From an uncultured Planctomycetia bacterium (GTDB lineage: Bacteria > Omnitrophota > Gorgyraeia > B26-G9), in the NCBI GenBank assembly GCA_964437495.1, contig CAYTGV010000011.1:3964-67963 (forward strand): a DNA stretch of 64,000 bases. The letters run 5' to 3'. The notes beneath the pieces were generated by a model that worked only from the letters and a program-made list of their open reading frames with translations, made no database searches and had not been told where the DNA came from. Below, one piece after another: positions 43,275 through 60,497 of the stretch (positions are counted from its first letter, which is position 1; every line of letters begins with the position of its first letter). The translations under genes were made by a program, and so were the position numbers.

Positions 43275-43499
43275 CTTTTGTCTCCTGGTTATCAGTCCAT
43301 GAATATAAGTAAATGATTAACCCCTATTGTATCATAAGACTGGATAATTTCAAGGAATAGAGAAAGTGGAGAGTTTGGGCAGGAAAAAGACACAAGACAC
43401 AGGTCACAAGTCACAAGTTTCAATTTGACCAACAATCTATTCTCTCCCCTTTTGGAATTTTTAGCTAAATTTCTTTGGTTTAGGTTTGAGTGTAGTTAT

Positions 43500-43830
43500 G
43501 GGGCGATGCCTGCCCCCGATGAAACGTCCCCCAGCCTTCATTTCCTTTTGTCGTCTAAAGGAAACGAAGCAAAGGCCCCGACTAAAAGCATGCGGGATAA
43601 ATTCAACCATGCAACTTACCTCAAAAAAAATCTGTAAGTTACGGTTTCATTTTAAAACTCGCCCCCAAAGAAACCGCGATGATTTTCTAATGGTTTACTC
43701 ACTGCGACTTCATCCCGCAAAAGGCGGGATTCGCCGCCAATTCGGCAGTCCTGCCTCATGGCGTTCCGCCGTCCTGGCTGCATCTTCGTTCCTAAACCAA
43801 AGAAAAGTCTATCGCTCATTTCAAAGGGGG
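43500..43830 (-). ncRNA. Copy A of a repeated ~230-330 nt structured-RNA-like element (unknown class). It is inverted relative to copies B and C and flanked by GTCACAAG-type direct repeats
   Basis: The reverse complement aligns with copies B and C. The shared 3' block is gcuggggga-cg-N-aucgggggcaggcaucgcccc, and the hairpin cuucguuucc/ggaaaugaag matches B. ORFs 43425..43637 and 43486..43836 overlap it and are judged spurious. Confidence 0.5.
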
Positions 43831-43956
43831 ATTTGAAAAACCGAAAAAAGTCACCAAGTCACAAGGTCACATGTCACAACTTAAAAATAGAACCATCCCT
43901 TTTTTTTCTTTTTTTAAAAATAAAAAATAATAAAGAAGCTCATTGATATAATATTA

Positions 43957-44052
43957 ACTAAAAACTAGTCGCTGTCCCTAGTTTCAAGTTCGAGATCACC
44001 TACTGGGGTGAACTTCTTCGCGCGCTCCCACCAGTTAGGTGGAATGAGTTGT
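43957..44052 (-). repeat. attC-like site (distal-most; R' end degenerate)
   Basis: acctactggggtgaacttcttcgcgcgctcccaccagttaggt is an imperfect palindrome homologous to the site at 48644..48718. It has ...gagttGTTATAAg at the ORF-proximal end. Confidence 0.55.
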
Positions 44053-44990
44053 TATAAGTTTAAATTTTCTATTTGCTCAATAGGCACGCCGTTTATTTTC
44101 CAAACAGGCTCTAATGCGTCAATTAAACCACAGTTAAAGTTTATAGAGCCGTTTTTTTCAAAATGCAAATTTATGCAGTCAGTTCCTTTATCCGTTCTTG
44201 AATAGGTTGCTTTTGAACCGTTTGAAAAATGAACACTGAAACCGTATAATCCTTTTTCCTCATTATTTAATAATTCTAGTATCTCATATTGAGGCCATTT
44301 ATGAAATTTTTTAGCTTTGCCACAAAAATTAAGGTATTCTTTATGCCACGATATTAATGCTCCATAAAAATTAAAGCAATTAGATATTAGTACGCTTATT
44401 TCTTCAAGTGGTATTTGTTGTGCAGGGCCTCCTTCAGTCCATCTATAATACTCAGAGGAAAATATATAATCTGAATGGAAAAAAGAATTTCTGACCTTGT
44501 TATTAAAAAAAGAATCAAAATATTCTATCAACAAAGTTTCTTTTGTTTTTGTTGCAAGTTCTTTTATATAATCTATTTTTCGCTTAGCACTTGGAGGAAT
44601 ATAGCCAAGTATTTGTTTTTTATTAGATCGTGATAAATGACCAAAGGGTCTAATATGATAATGTTCGCCAGCAATAATTCTTAATATATTAGTGAGTAAT
44701 TCGTGAGGAGCTGTCATTTCAATTGCTTGACAATATATTAATAAACCGATCCTCCAATGACCGTTTTTCGAAGGAGCATCTTTCGCTTTTTTCAAAAGCC
44801 AATTGTAATCTTCAAATGATTTTTGCGATTCTTCGAAAGAATCCCAGTCAGCGTCTTGGCACCCACCAACTCTCAAAAGAGAACATATTGTGTCAAAAGC
44901 ATTTTTTTCAAAAGCTTTGCGTGCTAACGAACAAAAATATTCGAAAAATTTTTCTTTTTCTATGAATTTCAATTCTTTTAAATCATTCAT
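44052..44990 (-). CDS. Cassette ORF, hypothetical protein (312 aa)
   Basis: Long ORF with attC-like sites on both sides. No recognisable motif. Confidence 0.6.
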   Translation of the reverse strand: MNDLKELKFIEKEKFFEYFCSLARKAFEKNAFDTICSLLRVGGCQDADWDSFEESQKSFEDYNWLLKKAKDAPSKNGHWRIGLLIYCQAIEMTAPHELLTNILRIIAGEHYHIRPFGHLSRSNKKQILGYIPPSAKRKIDYIKELATKTKETLLIEYFDSFFNNKVRNSFFHSDYIFSSEYYRWTEGGPAQQIPLEEISVLISNCFNFYGALISWHKEYLNFCGKAKKFHKWPQYEILELLNNEEKGLYGFSVHFSNGSKATYSRTDKGTDCINLHFEKNGSINFNCGLIDALEPVWKINGVPIEQIENLNL

Positions 44991-44998
44991 TTTTTTAC

Positions 44999-45124
44999 TT
45001 ATAACGTTTGAGCTCAGGCAACTTAGCTAATAGCCAATAGTCGATGGCTAATAGTTATCTTGCTTCATGTTTTTTACTATTGACCATCAGCTATGAGCCA
45101 TAGGCCATTCTGTTTGCTTGAAGC
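44999..45124 (-). repeat. attC-like site, family 1 (...GTTTGAGCTCAGGCAACTTAGCTRATAGCCAATAGTCGATGGCTAATAG...GACCATYAGCTAT...)
   Basis: TTATAAC at one end and GTTATAC at the other. The internal inverted repeat is ctaatagccaatagt / actattgaccatcag. Further copies lie at 51892..52003, 52290..52390, 53085..53265, 54868..55002, 55705..55870 and 56440..56590, with a partial copy at 50085..50250. Confidence 0.6.
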
Positions 45125-45130
45125 GAATTG

Positions 45131-45586
45131 TTATACTTTCTTATTATAATATAATCTAAATTTCTCAATAACTAAAATATATATTTGAGAGGGTTTCATC
45201 CCCTTGGTAATTGCAGAATCATAATCTTTGGGTGTTTTTATGTCCATAATTTTACCATCATTAAATTTTTCATGCCATTTTGATTTTTCACTTACTATTA
45301 TAGATTTATTTGAGTCTTCATACTGATCTGATGTGATATCAATAATAACACTATCCAGAACAATCCATTCATGCGAAGAACCATTATACATAGCGCCACA
45401 AAATCTTTTTGGCTTTAATCCGAACTCATTTTTTAGGCAATTTCCTAAAAATAATGTAGCCCAGCTACAACAACCACTAGGAAAATGCGGAAGAAAGCCA
45501 GGAGCATTATCTAGATTTATATTTTCAATAGACTTTCTGAATAATTGTGCTATTTTTAATAATTCTTTTTTATTAATTTTTTTCAT
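45131..45586 (-). CDS. Cassette ORF, hypothetical protein (151 aa)
   Basis: ORF with GTTATAC, then ctgaataa, then ATG upstream. Confidence 0.55.
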   Translation of the reverse strand: MKKINKKELLKIAQLFRKSIENINLDNAPGFLPHFPSGCCSWATLFLGNCLKNEFGLKPKRFCGAMYNGSSHEWIVLDSVIIDITSDQYEDSNKSIIVSEKSKWHEKFNDGKIMDIKTPKDYDSAITKGMKPSQIYILVIEKFRLYYNKKV

Positions 45587-45589
45587 TTA

Positions 45590-45678
45590 TTCAGAGTATA
45601 ACATCGACATCACCCGCCGGTAGACGCGACGCAAAGCGGCACGGGTAACGGTCCGGGGAATGAAGTCATTATATGTTT
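45590..45678 (-). repeat. attC-like site, short GC-rich family
   Basis: gtataacatcgacatcacccgccggtagacgcgacgcaaagcggcacgggtaacggtccgggg is an imperfect palindrome with a TATAAC end. Confidence 0.45.
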
Positions 45679-46689
45679 TTATCCCAACTTTAGTATTTTT
45701 ATATTTGAAAGTTTAGCTGGTCCACATTCATTAAAAAATCCAAATCTTAAATCTCTTTCAAATTCTGCAAAAAGATCTTTTCCATTACCACTATCATCTT
45801 GAATTATTAACTTTGCACCATCAACATAAAAATCAAATATTTTACTTGCAACATCAATCTTAACTTCAATAGCAAAAGAGTTTTTAACTTTTACTAATTT
45901 TTCGGGGACACAATTCAAAATTTTTGGCCAATAAAATTTTTGAGTGCAATGCAAAACACTATTTGGGGTTCCCGGAGCACCACGATTATCAAGTCGTAAC
46001 ATTTTAAAGTTGCCATCATCGACATAGTTAAAAACAAAATTAACTAAAGAATCTTTAGGTAACGATAAATCAAAAGCTAAATGCAAAAAAGTGCTAATCT
46101 TGTTTTTGAATATTAAAAAAGAATGAACTCTCGTTCTATCAATATTAAGATTCAGAACAAGATTAGAATCATAGTCTGGATTTCCAGCTAATTTATTTAA
46201 TATAAATTTCTCAATAATTATATTCTTCGATAGTGCGCTAAGTGTAGCATTAAGCAATCCCAGAGCCATCTGAGCATGCCCAAGATCAATGGGCCACCCC
46301 TTTTTTGCCTGTTTTTGAGGATGAATAAAATTTCTATAATCTTTAAATAGATTATAAATCAGCTTAAATTCATCTATTTCGGGAAGCAAGTCAACATCCT
46401 TTAAAAGAATATATAATTCGCTAATTGTAAGACTGTTAAATTTCTTTAATTTTTGATTAACTCCTTCTTTTGGGTATTTAGGAGAATTTTTTAATTCAGT
46501 TTTATAAATATCAGCTAAATATATAAAAATCCCTTCAATTGTGCTAATTGATAAAAAAATAGTACTATAATTAGCATTAACTATAAAAACTCTTTCTAAT
46601 TCTTGAAGTCTTCCACGCAATACAGCTCTTAACTCAACATCATTTATAAAATTAAGTTCTTGCTTTGTGATTTCAGTTTTGTATTCCAT
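45679..46689 (-). CDS. Cassette ORF, hypothetical protein (336 aa) with a DYRNFIHPQK motif (possible HEPN-like Rx4-6H)
   Basis: It shares the motif DYRNF[IV]HP.K with the unrelated cassette protein 46860..47684. Confidence 0.55.
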   Translation of the reverse strand: MEYKTEITKQELNFINDVELRAVLRGRLQELERVFIVNANYSTIFLSISTIEGIFIYLADIYKTELKNSPKYPKEGVNQKLKKFNSLTISELYILLKDVDLLPEIDEFKLIYNLFKDYRNFIHPQKQAKKGWPIDLGHAQMALGLLNATLSALSKNIIIEKFILNKLAGNPDYDSNLVLNLNIDRTRVHSFLIFKNKISTFLHLAFDLSLPKDSLVNFVFNYVDDGNFKMLRLDNRGAPGTPNSVLHCTQKFYWPKILNCVPEKLVKVKNSFAIEVKIDVASKIFDFYVDGAKLIIQDDSGNGKDLFAEFERDLRFGFFNECGPAKLSNIKILKLG

Positions 46690-46705
46690 TTAATTCCTTG
46701 TTTTC

Positions 46706-46882
46706 ATATAACGTTTGAACTCAGCTACTAAGTTGAGCTCCACCTGTCCCGCCGTTTTGTGGCGAGATTTGCGCTTGCCTCGCCAGGCTTTTTGGCGGGC
46801 GCACCCTCCAGCCTGAGAGATTTTTTAAATTCCTCAGGTTCTCGCACTCTTTAAGAGGGTTACCTGTAGTGATTTGTTAGTC
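46706..46882 (-). repeat. attC-like site, family 2 (GC-rich palindromic core ...cccgccgttttgtggcgag...ctcgccaggctttttggcgggcg...)
   Basis: CATATAAC-GTTTGAACTCAGC at one end and gatttGTTAGtc at the other. A related site lies at 48079..48191. Confidence 0.55.
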
Positions 46883-47684
46883 TACTTTTTTTTGTTAAAT
46901 TTTTTTCAAAATAATTACAAATACTATCCAGAGCCCCTTTAGCCATGAATGCTTCTGGTTCATCACATGAATGTTCTTCCTTTATTTCTTTTTTGGGATG
47001 AACGAAATTGCGATAGTCACGAAGAACCTGATCAATTGTATTCGCTTTTTTATCTGGCAGGATTGAAATATCAGTTGCAACTTCAATCAAATCTTTTAAC
47101 ACCCATTCATCTTTCAAAATATCTTTTACTTTTTTATGCTTATCTCTAGGTGCTTTTAAGCTAGCCATAGCTTTTTTTCTAATTTTACTTTTTGAACACA
47201 ATAAATCATATAATATTGCTTCTAAAATACTTCCTGCAATAATAACACAGCTTTTCCATGCTCTGCTAGGCAGTAAAATCACAGATAATTCCTTATAGTC
47301 TCTTTCAACTATATTGCGCAATTTTTTGTCCGAAATATAAGGAAAACAACGCTGTTCAGCAAAACTACCTTCACCCCCATAATTTTCAAGGATGTCGATT
47401 AATTTCTGTATTGTTGAATAAAGGTCTAAGCCAGGGTAAAGGAGAGGAAGAGTAAGAATAGAGTCTGATGTTTTTTTAGTATATCTTCTTATAACCACTC
47501 TTATACTTACAAACTCATATTGCCATTTGGGAAGAAAATCTCTAGGATCAAGGCGATTGATTTCTTCAGTAAGAGCTGTAAGTAATTCATGTACGTTTGC
47601 AGTTGTTTCATCATTCCTTTTTTTTTGCAAAGTTAAAGATTTCCTCTGTATCTCTGTACATAGTTTTTTTAAATAGCCAACCAT
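46860..47684 (-). CDS. Cassette ORF, hypothetical protein (274 aa) with a RDYRNFVHPKK motif (possible HEPN-like)
   Basis: The motif is shared with 45679..46689. The start is preceded by GTTAGAC. Confidence 0.55.
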   Translation of the reverse strand: MVGYLKKLCTEIQRKSLTLQKKRNDETTANVHELLTALTEEINRLDPRDFLPKWQYEFVSIRVVIRRYTKKTSDSILTLPLLYPGLDLYSTIQKLIDILENYGGEGSFAEQRCFPYISDKKLRNIVERDYKELSVILLPSRAWKSCVIIAGSILEAILYDLLCSKSKIRKKAMASLKAPRDKHKKVKDILKDEWVLKDLIEVATDISILPDKKANTIDQVLRDYRNFVHPKKEIKEEHSCDEPEAFMAKGALDSICNYFEKNLTKKSRLTNHYR

Positions 47685-47701
47685 ATTAATATTATTCCTT
47701 T

Positions 47702-47893
47702 GTCTAACAGGTTAATATACGAACTTCGCATTTTAAATACAGCGTAGAGCGTCTAATTTATCCCGCCGTTCTTTAGCGGGAGCGCTTAGCGAATTCAAAC
47801 TACCCCCTCATCCCTAAACCCTATTCCCTGCGTTTCTATCCCCTTTTCGCGCACATGCACCTACCGCGCACGCACCTACGAGGTGAATTTTAA
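47702..47893 (-). repeat. attC-like site, family X (long; contains atacagcgtatagcgtctaatttatcccgccgttctttggcgggagcgcttagcgaat)
   Basis: Three copies (47702..47893, 49374..49560, 58740..58985) share more than 85% identity over about 120 nt, including the hairpin cccgcc-gttcttt-ggcggg. The R'-like ends GTTAGAC/GTTAGAT abut the downstream ORF starts. Confidence 0.55.
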
Positions 47894-48058
47894 TTATTTA
47901 TCTTTATCTACTGTATTTATATCGCAAGGAACTACAGCTCCACATTTAGGACATTTAGTAGGGATGCCCTTAATCTGAATATGCAAACCTTCTTCATGTT
48001 GAATAGGGGATTCAAATCTATTATTGCATTCGGGACAAGACAAGTATCTCTTAGACAT
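47894..48058 (-). CDS. Cassette ORF, 54-aa zinc-ribbon protein (absent from the ORF track; below the length cutoff)
   Basis: The minus strand reads ggaggaacta ATG and encodes MSKRYLSCPECNNRFESPIQHEEGLHIQIKGIPTKCPKCGAVVPCDINTVDKDK*. It has two CPxC pairs and a strong RBS, and sits exactly between two attC-like sites. Confidence 0.6.
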   Translation of the reverse strand: MSKRYLSCPECNNRFESPIQHEEGLHIQIKGIPTKCPKCGAVVPCDINTVDKDK

Positions 48059-48195
48059 TAGTTCCTCCTTTATTGCTGTATAACATTTGAGCTCAGCTAC
48101 TGGCTTGAACTACTTTTGCGCACACCCTCCAGCCTAAGAAATCTCAGGTTCTCGCCCTCTTTCGAGGGTTAGCTGAAGTAATTTGTTATCTGTTT

Positions 48196-48630
48196 TTATT
48201 CTTTTTCTTCTAGAACTTTTTGCACAACACCTTCAGATATTACTATTTCTTCTCCTGTAACACTGATAAATTGAAAGGTTTTAGTATTAATCAATATAGT
48301 TTCTATTGCCAATGGGAGTGTCCTGGTAAGACATATAACCTTATCTTTTGTCCCAGTTGGAAGGCCAGAGTAAATATATGAGATTGTATATTTATCATTA
48401 ATTTTGTCTAATTTGGTTTGGTCGGAAGGATTTGTTTGTTCGATTATGCGTGCTAGTTGAAATGTTTCATTTATTTTTATTCTATGCACGAATAAGTTTG
48501 GATTTTTCTCTGGAATTATTTCCCCATTTTTATATATACCAACATTTTGCTCAGTTAAAACTAATGTTTCTGTAGCTAAGGCGTTAGAGCATATAAAAAG
48601 AAAACCAAGTAATAAAATTAGTTTTTTCAT
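48196..48630 (-). CDS. Cassette ORF, secreted or lipoprotein (144 aa)
   Basis: The signal peptide is MKKLILLLGFLFICSNALA. GTTATATG, then aaaggaaa, then ATG lie upstream. Confidence 0.6.
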   Translation of the reverse strand: MKKLILLLGFLFICSNALATETLVLTEQNVGIYKNGEIIPEKNPNLFVHRIKINETFQLARIIEQTNPSDQTKLDKINDKYTISYIYSGLPTGTKDKVICLTRTLPLAIETILINTKTFQFISVTGEEIVISEGVVQKVLEEKE

Positions 48631-48643
48631 TTATTTTCCTTTC

Positions 48644-48718
48644 ATATAACATTCAAACTCACCTACTGGGGTGAACTTCTTTGCACGCTCCCACCAGTTA
48701 GGTGAAAGAGTTGTTAGA
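48644..48718 (-). repeat. attC-like site (short palindrome acctactggggtgaac...cccaccagttaggt)
   Basis: CATATAAC and GTTAGAG ends. It is homologous to the site at 43957..44052. Confidence 0.55.
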
Positions 48719-48720
48719 GA

Positions 48721-49374
48721 TTATTTGTCGAAATTTATTTTAATATTTTTATAACCCAGCTTTTCGAATATATTACACAAACTTGAAAATGCTTGTCTAT
48801 CATTATGTATTAAATGAGGTCCTACATCAAGAAAAGCTCTACTAATCATATAATAAAAATCGCTGCCAAACAATAAGAGCTCTTTCATAACTGCATGACT
48901 AGGCAAGGAATTTCGTTTAGCTTGGTATTCTGCATGAGCAATTACTTTGTTTCGGACATAATCGTATTGTGAAAAACAAATCTTATGTTTTGAATAAAAG
49001 TTTTTGCAGATAACTTCTAGTGTTTCAATGTAATTATCTTTCTCACTATTGTTCTCATATTTTTCTATAAATTCATTAACGTATTCATAATATTTTGGTT
49101 GAACATCATTGCTTTTTATAAAGTTTAAAATTGCGGGAATGGAGTTCAGTTGATAATCTTTTTCTGGTTCAAAAATTTTACAAATATTAATTACGCAAGA
49201 CTCTAAAAGAACCATCTGAATGTGAACAAAAAATCTTTTTCCTATTCCAATAGTGTTTATATTGTCTGCGTTTAAGCCGAGTAGCTTTTCTGAATCAATG
49301 CTTTGCTTAAGTGAAAAAAGTATTTTTGCTAATTCTTTATTTCTCTCATCTAATTTTTTCATCATTTTTTTCAT
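48721..49374 (-). CDS. Cassette ORF, hypothetical protein (217 aa) with a possible HEPN-type Rx4-6H motif (RNKVIAH)
   Basis: ORF with GTTAGATGaaaaaa then ATG upstream. The motif assignment is tentative. Confidence 0.5.
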   Translation of the reverse strand: MKKMMKKLDERNKELAKILFSLKQSIDSEKLLGLNADNINTIGIGKRFFVHIQMVLLESCVINICKIFEPEKDYQLNSIPAILNFIKSNDVQPKYYEYVNEFIEKYENNSEKDNYIETLEVICKNFYSKHKICFSQYDYVRNKVIAHAEYQAKRNSLPSHAVMKELLLFGSDFYYMISRAFLDVGPHLIHNDRQAFSSLCNIFEKLGYKNIKINFDK

Positions 49375-49582
49375 CTAACATTTAATATACGCAATTCGCA
49401 TTTTAAATACAGCGTATAGCGTTTAATTTATCCCGCCGTTCTTTGGCGGGAGCGTTTAGCGAATAACAAATCCAAAACTACCCCCTCATCCCTAACCGCT
49501 GCTTTTAACTAGTAATTCATAATTCACGTGTGCCCTTTAGGGTTTAACTCATAACTATGTTTCCCTATTCTCTGCTTTTCTG

Positions 49583-49814
49583 TCTCCCCTTTGAAACCAA
49601 GCATTATGTTTTTCTTTAAGTTAGGCGTTTGGGCGAAGACAGGATGTCGAAGCGCCGTAAGGCAGGATTGCCTTTTCGGCGGTTTACCCATGAGACTAAC
49701 TTATTAGAAAAACAATGCTGTTTCTCAGGGGCGGTTTTCCTTTGCTTCGTTTCCTTTAGACGCCAAAAGGAAATGAAGGCTGGGGGACGCTTTATCTGGG
49801 GCAGGCATCGCCCC
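49583..49814 (+). ncRNA. Copy B of the repeated structured-RNA-like element, embedded inside a composite attC region
   Basis: It aligns with copy C. The helix gcgccg...cggcg (B) versus gugccg...cggca (C) shows a compensatory change. The hairpin cuucguuucc/ggaaaugaag (with a G.U pair on this strand) versus cauacuuucu/agaaaguaug in C also shows compensatory changes. The conserved 3' end is gcugggggacgc..aucgggggcaggcaucgcccc. The overlapping 72-aa ORF 49629..49847 is judged spurious. Confidence 0.5.
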
Positions 49815-50256
49815 TTAATCCCACATAAATCCCCTGCCGCTTTCTAAAAATAAAAAAAGACAATCCCCTCAATCTCTTGAGAAAATCGCCTTAAAATTAA
49901 ACTTTTTGTATGCACTCATTAATTCTACTCCTTTGTAGCCTTATGAGTTTGTCAAAACCATATTAATTTAGGTTACATCTTTCTCTTACACAAGTCAATG
50001 AAAAATCAAACAGGGAAAACTGCCCCATTTTAATGAACTTTTATGTTTTTTCTCTCCACTTTTAATATATTCTATATAGTCGATAACCAATAGTCTATGG
50101 CTAATAGTTATTTTATCTTTAATCTGCTTCTTCACTCATCACTAATAATTCATAATTTGTAACTATTTGGACCATTAGCTATGAGCTATAAGCCATTTCA
50201 TTTGCCTGCCTGTCCCGCCGCTTTTTGGCGGGGAAGCGATTTGTTAGGGGTTTTAT

Positions 50257-50622
50257 CTATAGATCATTACGTAAATTTGTTAGTTTTCTTTCTAAAACTG
50301 CAAGTTCTCGTAATGTATTCTCTTTAAGTTCAGTGTTTTTATTATCAACCTCACTAAAATCTATGTTTTTATAAGTATTTCTCAGGAAAATGAATTTTTC
50401 CAGCCAAACATTTAAATCCTGCCGTTCGGTTTCTTCACCCTCATTTATAAATATTTCCATACCATCAGTCAATTCTTTCCAGTAAACCTTTACTATTGAA
50501 AACACAGCATCTGGACTTTCGTCTTCATTAATATCAAGGCGAGTTGTCCATAACATAACTTCATTTAATTCAATTATGTCTAACAAAGAATCAACTACTT
50601 CCTTAATAATATCTCTACTCAT
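50257..50622 (-). CDS. Cassette ORF, hypothetical protein (121 aa)
   Basis: RBS AAGGAG. A TTGACA-N16-TAAAAT promoter-like sequence lies about 60 nt upstream on the minus strand. Confidence 0.55.
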   Translation of the reverse strand: MSRDIIKEVVDSLLDIIELNEVMLWTTRLDINEDESPDAVFSIVKVYWKELTDGMEIFINEGEETERQDLNVWLEKFIFLRNTYKNIDFSEVDNKNTELKENTLRELAVLERKLTNLRNDL

Positions 50623-53054: not shown

Positions 53055-53270
53055 AATAATAATAGTTTCCTTTCTAAAACATTAAAATAAACCATGACAT
53101 CTCAGGCAATTTAGCTGATGGCTAATGGTCGATAGTCAATTGCTAACAGATATTGCAATTTTGTTTTTTGTTTATTGTTTTTCACTATTAGCCATTAGCT
53201 ATGCCTGTCCGCTGTGCTTTGTGGCGGAAGCTATTGACCATTGTAAAATGTCACTCTCCCCTTTTATCTC

Positions 53271-54749: not shown

Positions 54750-55019
54750 ACCAATATATACATGTCTCTTGCAGATCTTTTGTCAATGCAATACTATTTT
54801 TGTCTCAGTCAGGTGTAAATTCTGCTTTTTCAGTAATGTTTGACTTTTTTTATCCCCTTTTTCACTATATGACGTTTGAGCTGCCAGTTTAGCTAACTGC
54901 CAATAGTCGATGGCTAATAGTGGTTTGCTCTATATTTTTTTACTATTTACCATTAGCTATAAACCATGAGCCATTATATTTACCTAAAGTAATTTGTTAG
55001 ATGTTTATATATTTTAAAA

Positions 55020-55364
55020 TTAATCTTCTACAAAAATTGTTTTCTTTATCGGATTAGGTGCTTTTACTACCAAAAACTTCAATGGATTTTGACTTTCATT
55101 GTACCAACAATGCACAATATCTTTCGGACTATCTATTAAAGTATTTTTTGAAACTTTTTGTTTTTCTTCTCCGATCTCAACAATTCCTTCTCCTTCCAGT
55201 ACATAAAAGACAACATCAACAGGTGTTATGTGACGCTTTAATGATTGACCTGGAATTAGCGTGATTACTGTAATCATGACTGCTTCTTTATTGTATAGAT
55301 TTCTAACGTCCACGTTGTGCGCATTATTCATTATTTGAGTTTCATCTAATTTTTTTATTATCAT
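55020..55364 (-). CDS. Cassette ORF, cupin-domain protein
   Basis: A 114-aa protein with a cupin-like G(x)5HxH-type segment (LIPGQSLKRHITPVDV...). Confidence 0.45.
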   Translation of the reverse strand: MIIKKLDETQIMNNAHNVDVRNLYNKEAVMITVITLIPGQSLKRHITPVDVVFYVLEGEGIVEIGEEKQKVSKNTLIDSPKDIVHCWYNESQNPLKFLVVKAPNPIKKTIFVED

Positions 55365-55422
55365 TTTATCTCCATTGTTATTATTAATAATTTTAATTCT
55401 TTTATTACCGATTAAAAAGCAC

Positions 55423-55680
55423 TCAACCCACCATCTTCATAATCCCCACATAAGCACCAAAACCAATACCCCAGGAAATTGCTACCCAAAAGATTAGTTT
55501 TGTTTCGGCTAGAATATCTTTCCAATATTCCCCTCTACACATTGAAAAAATATTTGGGATGAGCCAAAATTTTATACAACGCAAAAATTCTTCTTTGTCT
55601 CCGAAAAAGGGTTTCCATAGAAGATAGGCTAGGCCGACTCCTACTATAGTTCCCACACTCTTACTAATAATAGCTATCAT
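55423..55680 (-). CDS. Cassette ORF, small membrane protein (85 aa)
   Basis: Two hydrophobic helices, in the same cassette as the cupin gene. Confidence 0.4.
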   Translation of the reverse strand: MIAIISKSVGTIVGVGLAYLLWKPFFGDKEEFLRCIKFWLIPNIFSMCRGEYWKDILAETKLIFWVAISWGIGFGAYVGIMKMVG

Positions 55681-56000
55681 ATACTCTCCGTTTCATGGAT
55701 TCCTATAACATTTGAGCTCAGGCAACTTAGCTGATAGCCAATAGTCGATGGCTGATAGTTATGTTGCTCTATGTTTTTTACTATTCACCATTAGCTATGC
55801 CTATCCGCTGTGATTTGTAGCGGAAGCCATTAGCTATACGCTATTGACCATTTTAAAATGTCGCTGTCCCCTTTAATACACGTTTGATTTTATATATAAC
55901 GTTTAAGCTCAGGCAAAAATCAGCGCATAGAAAATTCAGACATAGTAATCGCTGTCTCTTTTCCCCTCACTAAATCAAGAACAGTTCAGTCTAATCTCTT

Positions 56001-56414
56001 TTATTGTTTTTTCTCTCTTAAATATAAAACTAACACACAAACTCCATGGATTACAAAAGCCGGTGCAAATAAAAGGCCTATAAAGTATCCATTAGTGCTT
56101 ATTCCGGAAGCAAATGCCCAGATGTATATTGCTGATACACCTAAACTAGCAATCGCATCTACCAATTTATAATTATCTTTCTTATAGTATAAAGGCAAAG
56201 CGCCTAATGCTGCATAAATAGCTCCGTTAAAAATCAGAGTTATCGTTTCCTTCTGGGATATGCCAAGTTTAAAAATATTTTGTATCCCAAATAATAAGCC
56301 CAAAAAACCTAAAAGAAGTAAAGGAAAATGGTAGTACATAGCAATATTGGGATTGAATTTCTCAAGAACATGTCCGAGAGTTCTATTTTCATTTGTAGTT
56401 TTGTTTTCTTCCAT
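56001..56414 (-). CDS. Cassette ORF, 4-TM membrane protein (137 aa)
   Basis: Hydrophobic profile only. Confidence 0.5.
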   Translation of the reverse strand: MEENKTTNENRTLGHVLEKFNPNIAMYYHFPLLLLGFLGLLFGIQNIFKLGISQKETITLIFNGAIYAALGALPLYYKKDNYKLVDAIASLGVSAIYIWAFASGISTNGYFIGLLFAPAFVIHGVCVLVLYLREKKQ

Positions 56415-56607
56415 GTCTTACTCTCCATTTTCTTTATATAACGTTTGAGCTCAGGCAAATTAGCTGATAGCCAATAGTCGATGGCTAATAGTTATTTTAT
56501 TTTTAAACTGCTTCTTCACTCATAACTAATAATTCATGTGTGCCCTTTAGGGTATAACTCATAACTATGTTTACCTATCCCCTGCTTTTCTCTCACCCTT
56601 TTAAAAC

Positions 56608-56637
56608 ATAATATGCCATTTCCATGAATTTTGTCAA
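56608..56637 (-). promoter_or_regulatory. Near-consensus sigma-70 promoter (TTGACA-N18-TATTAT) reading into the downstream cassettes
   Basis: The minus strand reads TTGACAaaattcatggaaatggcaTATTAT. An almost identical copy lies at 60182..60211. Confidence 0.55.
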
Positions 56638-56728
56638 TTTTATATTATTTTTGTCTTTTTATCCCCTTTTGGAATTTTTAGCTATATTTCATTGTTTTAG
56701 GGGAATGGATGGAGTAGAGGCGAAGGAA

Positions 56729-58561
56729 TTAAATGCTTTGGTCAATTTTTGTTTTGTTTTGAACCTGAAAAATTTTTATCCCAGCGGCAAGAAATGAAAT
56801 TGAGGCGAGATTTGCTAGGTTTTTGCTGTTTAGCTCTTCTTGCACCCATTCTGTTTGATTAACAGAGGATCCTAAAAAAGTATGTAAAAGTCTAGCGGAA
56901 ATAGAACGTTCTTTGGCTTGGGTTGTAAAATTAGGAGATTTAGCAAGAGAAATGACTTTTATTTTTTCTTGGATAGATAAGTCATTATAGAAATTATTTA
57001 TAACCTGTAGTAATTGTTCAAATCTCTGATTGCTGGTTGTGTATGCAGGCAATTCGGCTTTTCTTGATAGAAACGGCTCTTTAGTTCCTAAGAAATCTTG
57101 ATCTACATCTAAAATTATATCTTGATCTTCATCTGCAAGTTTTTTAAGTTTTATTGCATCCTTGGGAGATACTAAATGAACCTCTACTTTTCTTACATTA
57201 GTGAATTTTGCATTTTCGCCTTCCCATTCTTCTTTGATATACCCTTTTTCATAACTTCCAAAAACGTTGTTTCCATCTAAAGATACAGAAACAAAAGTAT
57301 CTTTGCCTCTAAACATTGCTTTTCCAATAAGAATTTCATATTTTTTGTTATATTCTGGAACGTAGTCTACGTTGCTGGATTCATTTGCTTCTTCAGGGAC
57401 AACCCAAATTATTTTATCGATTATCCCAGCATAAACAGCTGGAATAATGAAACCATCGATGTCAGATTTTTGGGTAATGCGTCCTAACATTTCATTATTA
57501 AAATTTCCGTTCAAAAAAGCATCTAAAAAATCATTATTTAATCTGTAAGAAGCTAAATCTCGATGGGCATCAAAGTGAAATAAGGTTCTTTTTTTTGTTT
57601 TAGGACCTAACTCCTTCATCCAAGCATATAATGCCCAATAATGAGCATAGCCTATATAAACCGGAATATCGGTAGAAGTAATTGCTCTGGGTTTAGAGAT
57701 ATTGTTAAAAAGATCTAGCTCATAAAAAAAATCAGCATTCTCAAACTGATCTTGGATTACTGAATATGTGTTTTGATCAAAAATCAATGGGTATGTGCCT
57801 GCATCAAACCAAGTTACATATTTTTCTTTATTATCTTTATTGGCATATAATTCAAAAATTTTGTTTGCACGGCTTAATCTAGAAAACATGATGTCTAAAT
57901 ATGATATTAAATCTGTTTCACCTTTAATTGTTAAAGATTCTTTTAATTTCATAAAATGCATTTGCTGTTCATTATAAATTTTTGATGCCATTAACCAATC
58001 ACTACTATTCAAAGAATTGAGGAATAATTTCCAAATGGGATCATTTGTATCAAGGGTGATATCCGCATTTTTTAATAAAGAGTTTAAATGATTACCTACT
58101 GTCATTTTAGAATATCGAAGCTTATCTATAAATTTTTTTTCTTCTTGTTTTTTGAGAATTAATTCAGGATTAGCTTTTTTTACATATAATCCTGCATTGG
58201 CAATGCCTGGAGGAACTAAGGCATAAGTTATGGCGGCTCCAGTTAATATTCCCAAACCTTTGATAAATTTTCTTCTTCCAATAGAGATGTCTGAGTTTGC
58301 ATTTTTTGAATCATCAGAAATAATAAATCTTTTGATAAATGATTTTATATATTCAGCAAATTTTTTATTTTGGGGAGTTTTAGCTATCTCTATTGTATCT
58401 TTAAAGTATTCTTTTAAGTTTATATTGTTTAATTGTAAATGCGGGGCAAGGTGATTATTAAGTTCTATACAATAAGCCAAATCACCCAGAAGAAACATAT
58501 TAATTAAGAATAAAATGCAAAGTTGTTTCATTAGTTTATTTATTCTAATCTTAAGTTTCAT
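56729..58561 (-). CDS. Cassette ORF, large hypothetical protein (610 aa) with an internal twin-arginine-like segment (RRKFIKGLGILTGAA)
   Basis: Long ORF. The true start may be internal. No catalytic motif recognised. Confidence 0.55.
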   Translation of the reverse strand: MKLKIRINKLMKQLCILFLINMFLLGDLAYCIELNNHLAPHLQLNNINLKEYFKDTIEIAKTPQNKKFAEYIKSFIKRFIISDDSKNANSDISIGRRKFIKGLGILTGAAITYALVPPGIANAGLYVKKANPELILKKQEEKKFIDKLRYSKMTVGNHLNSLLKNADITLDTNDPIWKLFLNSLNSSDWLMASKIYNEQQMHFMKLKESLTIKGETDLISYLDIMFSRLSRANKIFELYANKDNKEKYVTWFDAGTYPLIFDQNTYSVIQDQFENADFFYELDLFNNISKPRAITSTDIPVYIGYAHYWALYAWMKELGPKTKKRTLFHFDAHRDLASYRLNNDFLDAFLNGNFNNEMLGRITQKSDIDGFIIPAVYAGIIDKIIWVVPEEANESSNVDYVPEYNKKYEILIGKAMFRGKDTFVSVSLDGNNVFGSYEKGYIKEEWEGENAKFTNVRKVEVHLVSPKDAIKLKKLADEDQDIILDVDQDFLGTKEPFLSRKAELPAYTTSNQRFEQLLQVINNFYNDLSIQEKIKVISLAKSPNFTTQAKERSISARLLHTFLGSSVNQTEWVQEELNSKNLANLASISFLAAGIKIFQVQNKTKIDQSI

Positions 58562-58992
58562 AAGTAATCAGTTTTCCTATTAACTAAATTATAAGTATCA
58601 ATTAAATTATACCTTATAACGTAGATATTATACAAATTAGTTAGCGTAATTTATTGATTTAATTGTTAGCTAAAACTATAGCTGGAAAGGCAATAAAAAT
58701 TAAGATTAGTAAATATTTATTTATGATTTATTTTCTTAAAATAACAATTAATATACATAGTATGTGTTAAATACAGCGTATAGCGTCTAATTTATCCCGC
58801 CGTTCTTTGGCGGGAGCGCTTAGCAAATCCAAAACTATCCCCTCATCCCTAACCGCTGCTTTTAACTCGTAATTCATAATTCACGTGTGCCCTTTAGGGT
58901 ATTTGGGCCATTAGCTATGCCTGTCCGCTGTGCTTTGTAGCGAAAGCCATTATGTTTGCCTGTAGCGAATTGTTAAAAATGTTTTAAAATAG

Positions 58993-60039
58993 TTAATTTT
59001 TATTTTCTATCAAATTTTTTAATTCTTTAGCAAGTAAAGACTGTCCCAATTTATTTAAATGACAATAATCAAGAAAAAATTTCTGTGTGTTCGCAGGGTT
59101 GTTATTAACTTGTTTTAGGAAATAATCATCCAGATTTAAAATATTTAAGTTATCTAACCCTATTAAGTTTTGTTTAATCATCGATTGAAGTTGCGGAGTA
59201 ATGAGAAATCTTCTTTTTATCCAATTTTTTTCGATTATATCTCTAGTGATATTAATATCTTTCGGCATTTCTATATTCAATTGGTCGTATTTTTTCATAT
59301 GGTTCCAATTGTGTGTATAGTTTATTGGGGGAATAACATAAATAAAATTTGTTTGAGGGTTATCATTTATTATACTTCTTAGTTCTCTTAGTCTCATTTT
59401 ATAAAATGAATTTTGCAATGAAATATAGAATTTGTTTAAATAAGGCCAAGAATCTTTCCCTCCACCTTTTATTATCGCAAAGGGAAATCGATGAGGATGC
59501 TTTGATTGGCATATTTTGTCGTATAAAGTATTTATTGTATTATGAGTTGTGTGTGAAAAAAAACTGATTTGAGAAAAGATTTTGGGTAAAAAGTATCGAA
59601 TGAGAAAAACTGCACAATTAGAATGTTCACTACGGTTTAGTAGTTCTAAATATTCATTATTACCAGAAAAAATAACGCAATTTTCAATATCATTTGTTCT
59701 TAAGGAGTTATATAAATAGTAATTTATTTCTGAGAGAGGAATCCCAATGTTTGAATCATTAATGATGGTACTTTTGGGGAAATAACTTGCTAGCAATTCA
59801 GAATATCTATCGTTAATATTTTCTAACCCCGCTCCTTTTGAAGCTGAGCCTCCAAGACAAAGAATATCAATCTTCTTACCAAAATCATGCACCTCAGGCA
59901 ATTTAAAAGATACTTCTCTTAGTACATAAAATCTTTTCCCCCGCCCTATAGTAATCCGAGTTATTAACTCAACAGCGCTTAGAATAATAATGAGGGTAAA
60001 AAATACAACATATAGTTTGTGGAGAATATTTTTTTTCAA
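58993..60039 (-). CDS. Cassette ORF, membrane-anchored hypothetical protein (348 aa), possibly SGNH/GDSL-like
   Basis: An N-terminal TM helix. ILCLGGSASKG weakly resembles GDS(L) block I. Confidence 0.45.
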   Translation of the reverse strand: MKKNILHKLYVVFFTLIIILSAVELITRITIGRGKRFYVLREVSFKLPEVHDFGKKIDILCLGGSASKGAGLENINDRYSELLASYFPKSTIINDSNIGIPLSEINYYLYNSLRTNDIENCVIFSGNNEYLELLNRSEHSNCAVFLIRYFLPKIFSQISFFSHTTHNTINTLYDKICQSKHPHRFPFAIIKGGGKDSWPYLNKFYISLQNSFYKMRLRELRSIINDNPQTNFIYVIPPINYTHNWNHMKKYDQLNIEMPKDINITRDIIEKNWIKRRFLITPQLQSMIKQNLIGLDNLNILNLDDYFLKQVNNNPANTQKFFLDYCHLNKLGQSLLAKELKNLIENKN

Positions 60040-60181
60040 GATTTTAATTTCTTATTTTTAACAATTAATATACATAGTATGTGTTTGCTTGAAGGTATTC
60101 TTAATCTTGCCCTGAATATGGTTAAAATTGCCTACTTTAACTTTAATATTTATCTATTTTATCAATAATATCATATTATCC

Positions 60182-60211
60182 ATAATATGTCATTTCTATG
60201 AATTTTGTCAA
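60182..60211 (-). promoter_or_regulatory. Near-consensus sigma-70 promoter (TTGACA-N18-TATTAT) at the proximal end of the cassette array, Pc-like
   Basis: The minus strand reads TTGACAaaattcatagaaatgacaTATTAT, reading towards the first cassette (58993..60039). Confidence 0.55.
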
Positions 60212-60233
60212 TTTTATATTATTTTTGTCTTTT

Positions 60234-60497
60234 TCTCCCCTTTTGGAATTTTAGCTATATTTCTTTTTTTTAGGGGGATGGACGAAAACAGGATGTTGGA
60301 GTGCCGTAAGGCAAGACTGCCTTTTCGGCAATGGATTTTCGAGACTTCAGACTCGGAAATTCATCCAGACACCTAAACCATTAGAAATATGCAAAAATTC
60401 CTTAGGGGTGGGTTTTCTTTGCATACTTTCTTTTAGCCACCGAAAGAAAGTATGGCTGGGGGACGCAACATCGGGGGCAGGCATCGCCCCCCCCCCC
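60234..60497 (+). ncRNA. Copy C of the repeated structured-RNA-like element, at the proximal boundary of the array; it ends in an 11-nt C tract
   Basis: See copy B. It has compensatory hairpins relative to A and B and a conserved 3' block. ORFs 60128..60376 and 60347..60556 overlap it and are judged spurious. Confidence 0.5.

Follow-up and report, generated by a model that had tools for sequence, protein, structure and literature searches.

Candidate genes of an undescribed two-domain small RNA family at the edges of a cassette-bearing island in Omnitrophota

We examined a 64,000-nucleotide stretch of an Omnitrophota chromosome (hereafter the window) and found in it three diverged copies of a strongly base-paired element of ~235-340 nt. 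We consider it somewhat probable (roughly 0.55) that these copies are paralogous genes of an undescribed family of two-domain structured small RNAs, independently transcribed and serving as island-terminal modules. The copies and their parts, in window positions, are as follows.

43500..43835, minus strand: copy A, an A-type paralogue (nhmmer score 222.6; 3′-domain CM 103 bits)
43576..43653, minus strand: 78-nt two-hairpin expansion between the 5′ and 3′ domains of copy A
49583..49814, plus strand: copy B, a B-type paralogue (nhmmer score 240.1; 3′-domain CM 105.6 bits)
60234..60490, plus strand: copy C, a C-type paralogue (nhmmer score 212.9; 3′-domain CM 82.6 bits)
43440..43485, plus strand: truncated C-type 5′ fragment, the first ~45 nt (89% to C over 45 nt)
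56607..56714, plus strand: truncated copy, a duplicate of the region upstream of C with the first ~55 nt of C (93-96% identical)
43394..43420: heptamer repeats to the left of the A unit, reading (TTGTGAC)n on the minus strand
43849..43880: the same heptamer repeats, right of the A unit

An earlier sequence-only reading of the window had placed three copies here, and all were recovered with refined coordinates. Copy A runs from the 5′ domain through the 78-nt expansion to the 3′ domain and the terminal hairpin P12; copy B is the shortest complete form and lies antisense to the cassette genes; copy C has an extra hairpin (P9) within its junction, and a C-run directly 3′ of it reaches 60497. The 37-nt 3′ block that had been singled out as conserved, GGCTGGGGGACG-N4-ATC-K-GGGGCAGGCATCGCCCC, has exactly three matches in the window, one per copy and without mismatch, and none in 100 shuffles. 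The reading had missed the expansion of A, the two truncated fragments and a promoter upstream of C. The 43440-43485 fragment abuts the 3′ end of copy A on the opposite strand; the 5′ fragments decay gradually and lack a clean G|TT crossover end. We noted another degenerate 5′ start at 56590-56607. The expansion segment of copy A is shared with L009, also breaks up the E-type copy of L038 and lies ahead of the 3′-domain-only copy of L007, and its second hairpin is similar to an attC module of the array. Repeats of the (TTGTGAC)n type also lie beside the A-type copies of L010 and L038.

The element folds into two domains. The 5′ domain (~155-185 nt) has a long interrupted closing helix (5′ CCCCU.. 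with ..AGGGG) leading to a multi-helix junction, from which project a short hairpin, a longer one (GCGCCG-UAA-GGCA...UGCC-UUUU-CGGCG) and, optionally, a third. The 3′ domain (~80 nt) consists of a 13-bp hairpin, a nearly invariant single-stranded block, GGCUGGGGGACG-N4-AUC-N, and P12 (GGGGC-AGGCAYM-GCCCC). Folded singly, B (z = -6.15) and C (z = -5.80) greatly exceeded their shuffles in stability, and RNAalifold on 11 copies gave 67 pairs, with compensatory double changes in 25. When 13 sequences were compared, 95.6% of the cells of 60 consensus pairs were paired, double-sided compensatory changes fell at 20 pairs compared with 11.1±1.9 in shuffled controls (0/500 reached 20) and ≤8 in slid controls, and the covariation score was 0.275 compared with 0.112; these counts are inflated by relatedness, as all sequences come from one narrow clade. 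The two helices in which compensatory changes had first been seen, gcgccg/cggcg in B with gugccg/cggca in C and cgcc/ggcg in A, and cuucguuucc/ggaaaugaag in A and B with cauacuuucu/agaaaguaug in C, proved real, and once homologues were added they were among ~10 helices that co-vary. The strand, which is the one first given, was assigned because of G-U pairs (2-5 per copy in consensus helices, with one U-G pair invariant) and folding energy, which in 12 of 13 copies favors the sense strand over the antisense by 10-27 kcal/mol. No small open reading frame holds its position, start codon or frame from copy to copy, and an AUG inside the 3′ hairpin shifts frame among them, with a stop after 5 codons in the E-type (read directly), in agreement with the earlier view that the region does not encode protein. 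The data thus support a conserved, strand-specific nucleic acid structure that is not protein-coding.

An exact-pattern scan on the 3′ block, which recovered sequences confined to a narrow clade, revealed 10 further distinct full copies and several partial ones in public contigs of Candidatus Omnitrophota, the narrow clade of which is the only place from which the family is so far known. We found no matches in plasmids, phages or viral contigs and nothing matching the element in the literature. None of the copies matched a family in Rfam 15 at the gathering threshold or at E≤10, so the initial failure to match known RNAs by eye held up in a systematic search; the partial match of copy A to RAGATH-7-assoc (E = 1.4) is at chance level. 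These results support the conclusion that the element belongs to no described RNA family. Some copies are rearranged, with the 5′ domain joined directly to the terminator (L038) or the 5′ strand joined to the 3′ domain (L008), and 3′ domains stand alone in L001 and L007. As a counterpoint to an RNA gene, the module-shuffled copies look more like a recombining DNA element. We also noted that contig breaks are frequent beside copies.

Signals for transcription were sought around the copies, and two features flank copy C.

60182..60211, minus strand: strong sigma-70-type promoter (TTGACA-18-TATTAT, 11/12), divergent from C, directed into the array
60491..60572, plus strand: 3′ extension of C, closing with a P12-like hairpin that has an inserted stem (60527-60561), then UUUUCCUUUUU

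Positions 60527-60572 probably form the intrinsic terminator of copy C. A hairpin and U-run lie 3′ of C and of the L002, L004, L006a and L038 copies; A and B have no U-run after P12. A simple scan for sigma-70 consensus promoters gave nothing immediately upstream of A, B or C. By eye, L038 has a TTGACA/TATAAT pair ~110 nt upstream, its spacer of only 15 nt being why the scan did not list it, and L003a has a similarly placed TTGGCA/TAATCT pair; three CTTGTATAAA-type repeats precede the position of this promoter-like pair in L038, L003a and L006a. The duplicate at 56607..56714 also carries the array-directed promoter, and a similar divergent promoter-like sequence was seen by eye upstream of the L009 copy. 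On our reading of the ORF maps, the downstream neighbor is convergent in ~9 of 13 copies and the upstream neighbor divergent in ~8 of 11. We infer that each copy is its own transcription unit.

Most of the DNA between copies A and C is a cassette array, within which copy B lies.

43975..60040 (about), minus strand: integron-type cassette array, attC sites between unrelated small genes, GC 0.29-0.36
49544..50162: ORF-less insert of ~620 nt splitting a composite attC, as judged against the uninterrupted attC at about 58740-58990 and against 50623-50944
49847..50097, minus strand: small convergent unit with a promoter-like site and a terminator

The attC sites of the array have R'' [A/T]TCTAAC and R' GTTATA/GTTAGA just before start codons, and an integrase was not found in the window. 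A and C thus stand at the two ends of the array in opposite orientation, and B within a composite attC, essentially as the sequence-only reading had described them. The insert that parts the two attC halves holds a 39-nt leader, copy B, the convergent small unit (promoter-like site 50097->50069; 16-bp hairpin and T-run terminator 49892->49857) and attC-like modules, and the convergent unit is kept beside the L011 copy (73% over 154 nt). Arrays of attC sites also accompany the element in L005, L006, L007 and L011; the majority of copies elsewhere lie outside attC sites.

The proposal that B occupies the position of attC-targeting elements holds insofar as B is an antisense insert in an attC, the orientation that group IIC-attC introns are reported to take relative to cassette genes (PMC3001079). 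It fails on the defining features: the element lacks the 5′/3′ consensus, domain V and reverse transcriptase of a group IIC-attC intron and the DEDD transposase of IS1111-attC, is too short (235-340 nt versus >600 nt or >1300 nt) and, unlike these elements, mostly occurs outside attC. The further proposal of a non-coding cassette suits B at best. ORF-less integron cassettes may bear promoters or RNAs (PMC6557892), and B resembles them in lying within an ORF-less segment between attC modules, as does the module upstream of C, together with its duplicate at 56607-56714, in having a strong array-directed promoter. However, A, C and most homologues, including the copies adjacent to uvrA and in HTH_17 islands, are not attC-bounded, and the element is more than a promoter, forming a conserved structured RNA family. 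Overall, the earlier interpretation was supported in part.

It had also missed that, by comparison with related genomes, everything from 43.3 to 62.3 kb, including A and C, is inserted DNA: set against L017 and L019, the window has ~19 kb (43286-62333) separating the ABC permease gene from that of PilZ. Likewise, the site preceding uvrA holds the RNA in L003, L010 and L038/L039 but not in L035 (89% UvrA identity), L036 or L037, and close relatives have neither RNA nor island at matching sites. The RNA genes are accessory, appearing and disappearing together with cassette arrays and with variable islands rich in defense or toxin-antitoxin genes, whose edges they tend to occupy. In the window, A(-) and C(+) are two different paralogues with their 3′ ends outward; in L003, L006 and L038, an E-type copy divergent from an HTH_17 gene is followed by variable cargo and then an A- or B-type copy, again with 3′ ends outward. 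Three of these four paired loci are one island family and therefore amount, with the window, to effectively two independent observations, and the outward pairing is not universal, as the copies listed on contig Ga0307991_1000359 are all on the same strand.

Two known arrangements invite comparison. Like tRNA and tmRNA genes that anchor islands, the element is a small structured RNA gene where conserved genes give way to a variable island, with a partial copy at the far side (the 43440-43485 5′ fragment, direct with respect to complete C). Unlike them, the RNA is itself accessory, close relatives lacking it along with the island; the variable DNA adjoins the gene's 5′ side, paired copies are inverted rather than direct, and there is no integrase. 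The pdif (Xer) modules of Acinetobacter plasmids, and other cassettes that lack a recombinase and lie between oppositely oriented sites, carry cargo, including toxin-antitoxin pairs, between inverted related sites, with the enzyme acting in trans. The islands described here are likewise variable cargo bounded by two inverted related sites, but the sites are 240-nt structured RNA genes instead of 28-bp protein-binding sites, and we found no evidence of Xer involvement.

Such behavior raises the question of whether the element is itself mobile. A non-autonomous mobile element (MITE-, SINE- or miniature-IS-like, or perhaps the RNA-bearing termini of an IS110/IS1111-type or different element that has its enzyme gene elsewhere) that inserts into attC and intergenic regions, its structure being needed for mobility as RNA or single-stranded DNA, is in our view an unlikely explanation. 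It would suit a multi-copy element that is present or absent at the same uvrA site in close relatives, the position of B inside an attC-splitting insert, the end of similarity among copies ≤~10 nt from P12 (the right junction at uvrA comes directly after P12), the contig breaks and an internal-deletion derivative (L008 3600-3745) that retains both termini. Single copies, however, show neither target-site duplications nor terminal inverted repeats; the left boundary of the inserted DNA varies between loci; none of ~15 loci encodes a transposase, recombinase or reverse transcriptase, inside the element or beside it; and the internal loops are conserved and not programmable, unlike those of bridge or seek RNAs. 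Further, the copies are not the product of a recent transposition burst, because those within one genome are only ~60-70% alike and their stems are compensated.

Sites of the attC type are conserved in structure and not in sequence, a property that the element shares. It could accordingly be an oversized attI/attC-like or pseudo-attC site, acting as single-stranded DNA for an integron integrase or another structure-specific recombinase, which would explain why cassettes and islands accumulate beside it; we regard this as rather improbable. The close association with attC arrays in the window, L005, L006, L007 and L011, the truncated copies at junctions and the location of C in the place and orientation of intI beside a Pc-like promoter speak for it, and a multistem candidate attC has been discussed (PMC5737381). 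Yet the element has neither R''/R' (RYYYAAC...GTTRRRY) terminal pairing nor a simple bulged attC hairpin, the R''/R' motif order is reversed in one helix of B-type copies, the 5′ fragments fade without a G|TT crossover, and no attC lies near the uvrA or HTH_17-island copies. Its features are those of RNA: an invariant U-G pair, frequent G-U, a multi-helix junction, long invariant unpaired blocks and downstream terminators. The same difficulty in separating RNA from single-stranded DNA attends orphan motifs of mobile DNA and integron regions that comparative genomics has uncovered, such as the multistem DUF1874 motif of consecutive intergenic regions (Weinberg et al. 2017, PMC5737381), which are similarly defined only by covariation and have several stems, conserved loops and cassette-like or mobile neighborhoods. 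The element differs in matching no Rfam 15 model by sequence or structure, in occupying array ends and one internal position rather than every intergenic region, and in having its own terminators.

A guide or scaffold RNA of a trans-encoded RNA-guided enzyme, omega-RNA-like, with the variable 3′ flank as guide and the outward-reading copies targeting or protecting island flanks, is very improbable: the conserved scaffold does stop abruptly before unrelated sequence in every copy and does point outward at island ends, but TnpB, IscB, Cas and IS110 genes are absent from all loci, no integrase or nuclease is linked, the HEARO and IS605-orfB RNA models are unmatched, and several copies have a terminator only after a 40-80-nt tail while others have a U-run right after P12, leaving no guide. 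We give still less credence to a new class of self-cleaving ribozyme riding in mobile DNA, which the element resembles only generically as a compact, conserved, multi-copy RNA in such DNA, the chance-level RAGATH-7-assoc hit aside; no ribozyme family matched any copy at E≤10, 235-340 nt is much larger than known small self-cleavers, and there is no mark of a cleavage site. The least credible reading, already disfavored, makes the element a cis-regulatory leader, riboswitch or type I toxin mRNA. In its favor, 225 nt separate A from the PilZ/pyruvate kinase operon downstream, the L003 and L010 copies precede uvrA by ~100 nt and are oriented like it, short hydrophobic ORFs can be traced through the T-rich 5′ leader, and a predicted convergent small transcript adjoins B and the L011 copy. 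Against it, PilZ and uvrA have their own promoters downstream of the element, with the same promoters in element-less relatives, most copies point toward the 3′ end of a convergent neighbor, and no ORF keeps its position, start codon or frame.

If the copies are small RNA genes, each would be read outward from the island side, and its transcript would end at P12 or at the P12-like hairpin and U-run 40-80 nt beyond. The product would act as RNA, most probably as a protein-binding scaffold, with the invariant 3′ block and the junction as its functional core and the co-varying stems serving only as structure. The arrangement hints that the RNA genes may be terminal modules of islands rather than random passengers, each such module perhaps combining an RNA gene with an inward- or outward-facing promoter. 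Such modules may also serve as landing or recombination points, which would account for the truncated copies at junctions.

A common architecture is visible at all three places where the sequence-only reading had claimed copies of a structured RNA-like element. It starts with UCUCCCCUUU and continues as a long interrupted helix, the 3′ strand of which ends in AGGGG(C/U)GG, followed by a GC-rich junction region, a 13-bp hairpin, and the block GGCUGGGGGACG-N4-AUC-N-GGGGCAGGCAUCGCCCC. We refer to the closing helix and junction as the 5′ domain and to the 13-bp hairpin, the near-invariant block, and the terminal hairpin P12 as the 3′ domain. Among copies, the element measures 232–339 nt and has UCUCCCC as its 5′ end. 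Exactly three occurrences of the 37-nt block were counted in the window and none in 100 shuffles of it, and the stability of the fold exceeds that of shuffled controls for B (z = −6.15) and C (z = −5.80). The copies and the pieces that accompany them are as follows.

43440–43485, plus strand: truncated 5′ piece, abutting the 3′ end of A on the other strand
43500–43835, minus strand: copy A (37-nt block at 43500–43536)
43576–43653: 78-nt two-hairpin expansion of copy A, between its two domains
49583–49814, plus strand: copy B (37-nt block at 49778–49814)
56607–56714, plus strand: truncated 5′ piece, 93–96% identical to the upstream region of C and the first ~55 nt of C
60234–60490, plus strand: copy C (37-nt block at 60454–60490)
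60527–60572: terminator-like hairpin of C, P12-like with an inserted stem

We took a census of homologues by an exact-pattern scan on the 3′ block in species-representative genomes, which yielded six loci, all in Candidatus Omnitrophota MAGs (JAKLQT01, JAZDHG01), and in JGI metagenomes, which yielded seven loci in Ga0307991 and Ga0307992; contig Ga0307992_1000065 is the window itself. A profile made from the first alignment then recovered copies overlooked by the pattern scan, and, as two or more variant types had escaped the scan, the census gives a minimum. The E-type variant is the second copy in each of the loci L003 and L006 and has a 3′ block shortened to GGCUGGGG-UYUAA-GGGGCGGMACAGCCCC, and copies found by profile search at loci L001 and L007 consist of the 3′ domain only. 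Further, locus L008 holds an internal-deletion copy (3600–3745, plus strand), in which the 5′ strand is joined to the 3′ domain, and at locus L038 (7317–7540) the 5′ domain is joined straight to a P12-like terminator. We note that the internal-deletion copy directly adjoins a tRNA gene (3400–3490, minus strand).

RNAalifold predicted 67 pairs from the 11 full copies, 25 of them with compensatory double changes. When 13 copies were aligned, 95.6% of the 779 cells in 60 pairs were paired, a count inflated by shared ancestry because a single narrow clade supplied all sequences, so that distinct pair types and slid controls are the sounder measures. Two-sided changes were seen at 20 pairs in the 13 copies, compared with 11.1 ± 1.9 when partners were shuffled (0 of 500 shuffles reached 20) and with 8 or fewer when partners were moved by one to three columns; the covariation score was 0.275 versus 0.112. 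Both helices that had been picked out by eye for their compensatory changes belong to the co-varying set of this alignment. The strand proposed for the RNA was also borne out, both by G-U pairs, of which the consensus helices hold two to five per copy (one U-G being invariant), and by folding energy, as the sense strand folds better than the antisense strand by 10–27 kcal/mol in 12 of 13 copies. The covariance model covers the 3′ domain only. Pairing of the 13-bp hairpin's loop (..CGCC../..CACC..) with the linker GGGGCGG/GGGGUGG as a pseudoknot is not established, as a pair is broken in four copies; one compensatory change is seen for it, in C-type copies. We conclude that the element is a strand-specific, two-domain, co-varying structure and that its copies form a family of diverged paralogues.

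One AUG alone recurs among the copies, in the 3′ strand of the 13-bp hairpin, where it co-varies as part of the stem; it changes frame in L008 and in L006a, the A/B-type copy of L006, and is followed by a stop five codons later in E-type copies. The short hydrophobic ORFs that can be read through the T-rich leader start at different places and vary in length. The small ORFs of the 3′ block and the 5′ leader were discarded, as neither frame nor start is conserved. With respect to known RNA classes, of which tmRNA, RNase P, SRP, hammerhead, and group II domain V had not been matched by eye, Rfam gave the same answer: at gathering level, the sole matches in the whole window were two tRNA genes (612–694 and 752–823, minus strand), unrelated to the element. 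Rfam 15 (4227 models, including riboswitches, ribozymes, tmRNA, 6S, SRP, RNase P, HEARO, IS605-orfB, group II intron, and RAGATH motifs) returned nothing consistent at E ≤ 10 on A, C, or the copies of loci L007, L009, and L011. A RAGATH-7-assoc match on A (18.3 bits versus a threshold of 88.5; E = 1.4) is at chance level and absent from the other copies. No real match was found in plasmids and phages by blastn in distant mode with B, or in viral contigs by three pattern scans, the seven matches from one of which agree with the pattern itself only. A full-text literature search found no description of the element.

Terminator-like 3′ ends are present in the RNA family: a hairpin and U-rich run lie 40–80 nt past P12 in C and in the copies of loci L002 and L004, and a U-run directly follows P12 in L006a and the P12-like hairpin in L038. 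By reading of ORF maps, the upstream neighbour is divergent in ~8 of 11 copies and the downstream neighbour convergent in ~9 of 13. No consensus sigma-70 promoter was found directly upstream of A, B, or C. The best upstream candidate, at L038, is ~110 nt away, and a leader is therefore implied; a weaker pair is present in L003a, the A/B-type copy of L003.

The cassette array (43975–60040) has a GC content of 0.29–0.36 versus 0.38–0.41 in its flanks and contains small unrelated minus-strand genes spaced by repeats that are canonical attC sites, with, on the gene strand, an [A/T]TCTAAC-like R″ start and a GTTATA/GTTAGA R′ end right before the next start codon. Its cargo comprises HEPN_AbiU2, DUF188, a cupin, a pyridine-nucleotide disulphide oxidoreductase, and many family-less proteins. 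Because no integrase was found among the window ORFs scanned (nor a transposase, RT, or TnpB), we describe the array as integrase-less. The copies are placed relative to the array as follows.

Copy A: ~150 nt past the last attC, oriented like the array genes
Copy B: within the array, antisense to the array genes
Copy C: ~195 nt upstream of the first array gene, on the opposite strand
49544–50162 (619 nt): ORF-less segment with B, separating the halves of an attC that is intact at ~58740–58990
60211→60182: promoter match TTGACA-18-TATTAT, the best in the region, just upstream of C but on the opposite strand, reading into the array

Based on this strand and position and on the array-directed promoter beside it, C has the place and orientation of intI in a classical integron. 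The segment with B, which may be an ORF-less gene cassette (a unit with attC recombination sites at its bounds and no credible ORF), lies between attC modules, with GTTA-type junctions and mosaic boundaries; this does not hold for A and C. The same segment contains a convergent small unit with a 16-bp hairpin and T-run terminator, which is conserved beside the L011 copy.

Several further features of the array were noted. A palindrome, GTGCCCTTTAGGG(T), recurs in long composite attC sites (49530–49545, 50835–50850, 56540–56555, and 58885–58900), and the left-hand and right-hand portions of these sites are re-assorted at it; two of its four occurrences are next to the leader of a B-type RNA copy. 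Three cassette proteins look HEPN-RNase-like (45679–46689, 46860–47684, and 48721–49374), one being HEPN_AbiU2 by Pfam and the other two having a DYRNF(I/V)HP motif by eye, and for this reason the array appears rich in defence or abortive-infection genes. A 511-nt stretch (47685–48195, minus strand) has a 54-codon zinc-ribbon-like ORF (MSKRYLSCPECNNRF...CPKCGAVVPC...) with its own attC on either side and is an extra small cassette, under the ORF length cut-off used. Finally, the insertion point of a ~78-nt two-hairpin module (..ACCGUAACUUAC..GGUAAGUU.. then AAUUUAUCCCGC..) differs from one RNA copy to another (43576–43653 in the window, ~385–462 in L009, 5090–5165 on the minus strand in L038, and ~1475–1497 in L007), and the module may itself be a small mobile insertion; its second hairpin is similar to a module that recurs in the attC sites of the array (47757–47778, 49427–49448, and 58791–58812).

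Two related genomes share the PilZ/pyruvate kinase/sigma-54 neighbourhood of the window (PilZ is 69% identical), and each has an ABC permease gene at a distance of ~100 nt from PilZ. Compared with these, the window has ~19 kb extra (43286–62333), which consists of A, the array, C, and three further genes, and, beside this insert, a deletion with remnants at 62333–62960. The remnants are a transglutaminase-like N terminus fused to an ABC permease C terminus, and the relatives have ~3.3 kb of intact genes (Transglut_core, ABC_tran, and ABC_tran_2) at the equivalent place. Upstream of uvrA, the RNA is present with an island at L003 and L038/L039 and also present at locus L010, which has the RNA, a heptamer-repeat array, and a solitary P12-like hairpin only; it is absent from three close relatives, L035 (89% UvrA identity), L036, and L037. 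The uvrA promoter region is alignable in all uvrA loci compared, and the extra DNA of L003 stops ~10 nt or less from P12. The RNA element is thus accessory and tied to islands and arrays. A role as PilZ or uvrA leader was rejected, as both genes keep their own promoters, used also in element-free relatives.

Two further kinds of small sequence feature were seen. Heptamer repeats (TTGTGAC/GACTTGT type) accompany A-type copies at three loci; they might bind a protein, be a tract prone to slippage, or serve as an insertion target. In addition, a ~95-nt hairpin-rich element (GAGnGUGGGUGGAnACAUCC ... ACCACCUACCCUCG then a U-run) is conserved upstream of uvrA both where the RNA family is present and where it is lacking; Rfam gave no match to it at E ≤ 1, and it may be another unclassified small RNA. 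Their positions are as follows.

Window 43394–43420 and 43849–43880: heptamer repeats, on both sides of the A unit
L010 6375–6520: heptamer repeats, ~20 units upstream of the copy in the opposite orientation
L038 7640–7720: heptamer repeats, a 15-nt variant downstream of the copy
L010 6278–6372, L036 ~7755–7855, and possibly L037 ~7690–7790: ~95-nt hairpin-rich element

One plan is common to the islands of L003 and L006 (same MAG) and L038/L039 (another MAG and an ENA assembly): an E-type copy is followed by a divergent HTH_17 (excisionase-family) gene, variable cargo, and an A/B-type copy on the other strand, such that the 3′ ends of both RNA copies face outward. The cargo consists of 375-aa and 78-aa proteins in L003, 148-aa and 170-aa proteins in L006, and HicAB and DUF6941 in L038; AbiEii and HTH_3 lie just outside the E-type end of the L038 island, the E-type copy of which is broken up by insertions. 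A conserved ~200-nt stretch before the A/B-type copy of all three HTH_17 islands has three CTTGTATAAA-type direct repeats (L003 ~1985–2100, minus strand; L006 6480–6600; L038 7090–7215), which look like a candidate operator for the HTH_17 protein of the island. After the repeats, we see a sigma-70-like promoter pair, TTGACA(15)TATAAT in L038 and TTGGCA(17)TAATCT in L003a, and no clear pair in L006a. The outward-facing arrangement is found again in the window, with A and C around the array; it is not universal, the copies listed for contig Ga0307991_1000359 being all on the same strand. Because the three HTH_17 islands are one family, two independent instances of paired ends are counted, and Ga0307991_1000962 (L011 and L007) was left out of the inverted-pair count, as the positions of its loci on the contig were not established.

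HTH_17, which lies beside the E-type copy in L003, L006, and L038, was rejected as a general partner of the RNA, as the window has no such gene. At the loci of its closest homologues in other lineages (L022–L027), no RNA copy was found by nhmmer or the 3′-domain covariance model. A Pfam analysis of the genes beside 10 copies gave unrelated families only, with no conserved protein neighbour. No enzyme gene is linked to the RNA element.

The reading that we favour, with a probability of about 0.55, is that the copies are independently transcribed small RNA genes that act as RNA, probably as a protein-binding scaffold, and that are at the same time terminal modules of islands. Each copy would be transcribed as its own small gene, the invariant junction and the 3′ block would form the functional surface, and an RNA gene with its promoter would make up an island end rather than random cargo. 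Most of the doubt in this joint reading attaches to the terminal-module clause and to the biochemical role.

A non-autonomous mobile element would account for the presence/absence polymorphism, the sharp 3′ boundary, and the existence of a deletion derivative, but we consider it unlikely, as the copies have diverged from each other, show neither duplications nor terminal inverted repeats (TIRs), and have no enzyme gene. MITEs have TIRs, a target-site duplication, and many near-identical copies, whereas single copies of the element lack TIR and duplication, its copies within a genome are 60–70% identical, and only the A unit is repeat-flanked, by heptamer arrays and not by a fixed-length duplication. 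Slightly less likely again is a structured single-stranded DNA recombination site, or pseudo-attC. The linkage to attC arrays and the truncated copies at junctions fit such a site; the G-U pairs, junction architecture, and terminators do not, and some loci are attC-free. An attC is a single imperfect hairpin of 55–150 nt with extrahelical bases, in which a terminal R″ (RYYYAAC) pairs with R′ (GTTRRRY); the sites of the array itself fit this description, whereas the element is a two-domain multi-junction fold with no terminal R″/R′ pair.

More speculative, and distinctly improbable in our view, is the idea that the paired outward RNA genes are the functional ends of an unknown recombinase-less cassette or island element, the RNA or folded DNA strand of which would direct or scaffold integration, excision, or exchange of cargo. 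Such an element would parallel the integron platform on an RNA basis, with RNA gene, divergent promoter, and insertion point standing for intI, Pc, and attI, and the small HTH_17 as sole conserved protein partner. That the island entered a resident RNA gene within its 5′ part is kept as no more than a possibility. It agrees with the direct 5′ fragment at 43440–43485, but comparison with relatives places C itself within the inserted DNA, and the fragments decay gradually. Where tRNA or tmRNA anchors an island, the housekeeping RNA is kept in island-free relatives, a direct partial repeat lies at the far end, and an integrase is present; a direct 5′ partial repeat relative to C does exist here, but relatives lacking the island lack the RNA too, and there is no integrase, which sets the element apart from such anchors.

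We give poor prospects to a guide RNA for an enzyme in trans. IS110/IS1111 elements have a DEDD (RuvC-like) transposase beside an RNA, two internal loops of which vary with target and donor, and in OMEGA systems the RNA overlaps or adjoins tnpB or iscB at a transposon end and takes its guide from the flank. No transposase domain was found in the window ORFs scanned or in genes beside the copies (L001–L011, L038/L039), and the internal loops of the element are conserved across different contexts, unlike those of bridge or seek RNA. Likewise, no OrfB_IS605, HNH, or RuvC protein was found near copies, and the HEARO and IS605-orfB models gave no match; a variable 3′ flank is present, as for an omega RNA, but several copies terminate at P12, which separates the element from that class. 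A new self-cleaving ribozyme class, the mark of which would be site-specific self-scission, is very improbable. Class C group II introns are six-domain ribozymes that measure 600 nt or more, have GUGYG at the 5′ end and a catalytic domain V, and in most cases encode an RT, and the element, at 232–339 nt with 5′ UCUCCCC, is not one of them; the Intron_gpII and group-II-D1D4 models gave no match, no RT domain was found in neighbouring ORFs, and insertion into attC antisense to cassette genes, as in group IIC, is seen for B only, A, C, and most homologues lying outside attC. A leader, riboswitch, or type I toxin is hardly credible. A type I toxin mRNA or small-protein gene would keep a small ORF in frame together with its start codon and ribosome-binding site, and none such was found.

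By position, the element resembles ORF-less or promoter cassettes and attC-inserting elements, and, by analogy, its nearest counterparts in working would be the orphan structured RNA motifs that comparative genomics has revealed in association with mobile DNA. Because the defining features of every family tested failed, we rate both the RNA family and its genomic arrangement as new. The claim of novelty concerns these two, and the function of the element could prove ordinary, e.g. that of a regulatory small RNA carried as cargo. If our reading is true, the element is a new ~240-nt bacterial RNA family, in which more than 20 pairs co-vary and a multi-helix junction is combined with long single-stranded blocks of invariant sequence, in what is, to our knowledge, a phylum without cultured model organisms; RNAs of comparable architecture have often proved to be ribozymes, riboswitches, or ribonucleoprotein cores. 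What is unusual is that different paralogues face outward at the ends of islands rich in defence and toxin-antitoxin genes, and of an integrase-less array, with no recombinase in sight. The finding would thus bear on how cassettes and small defence islands are moved and expressed in uncultivated bacteria that have no integrase beside the array.
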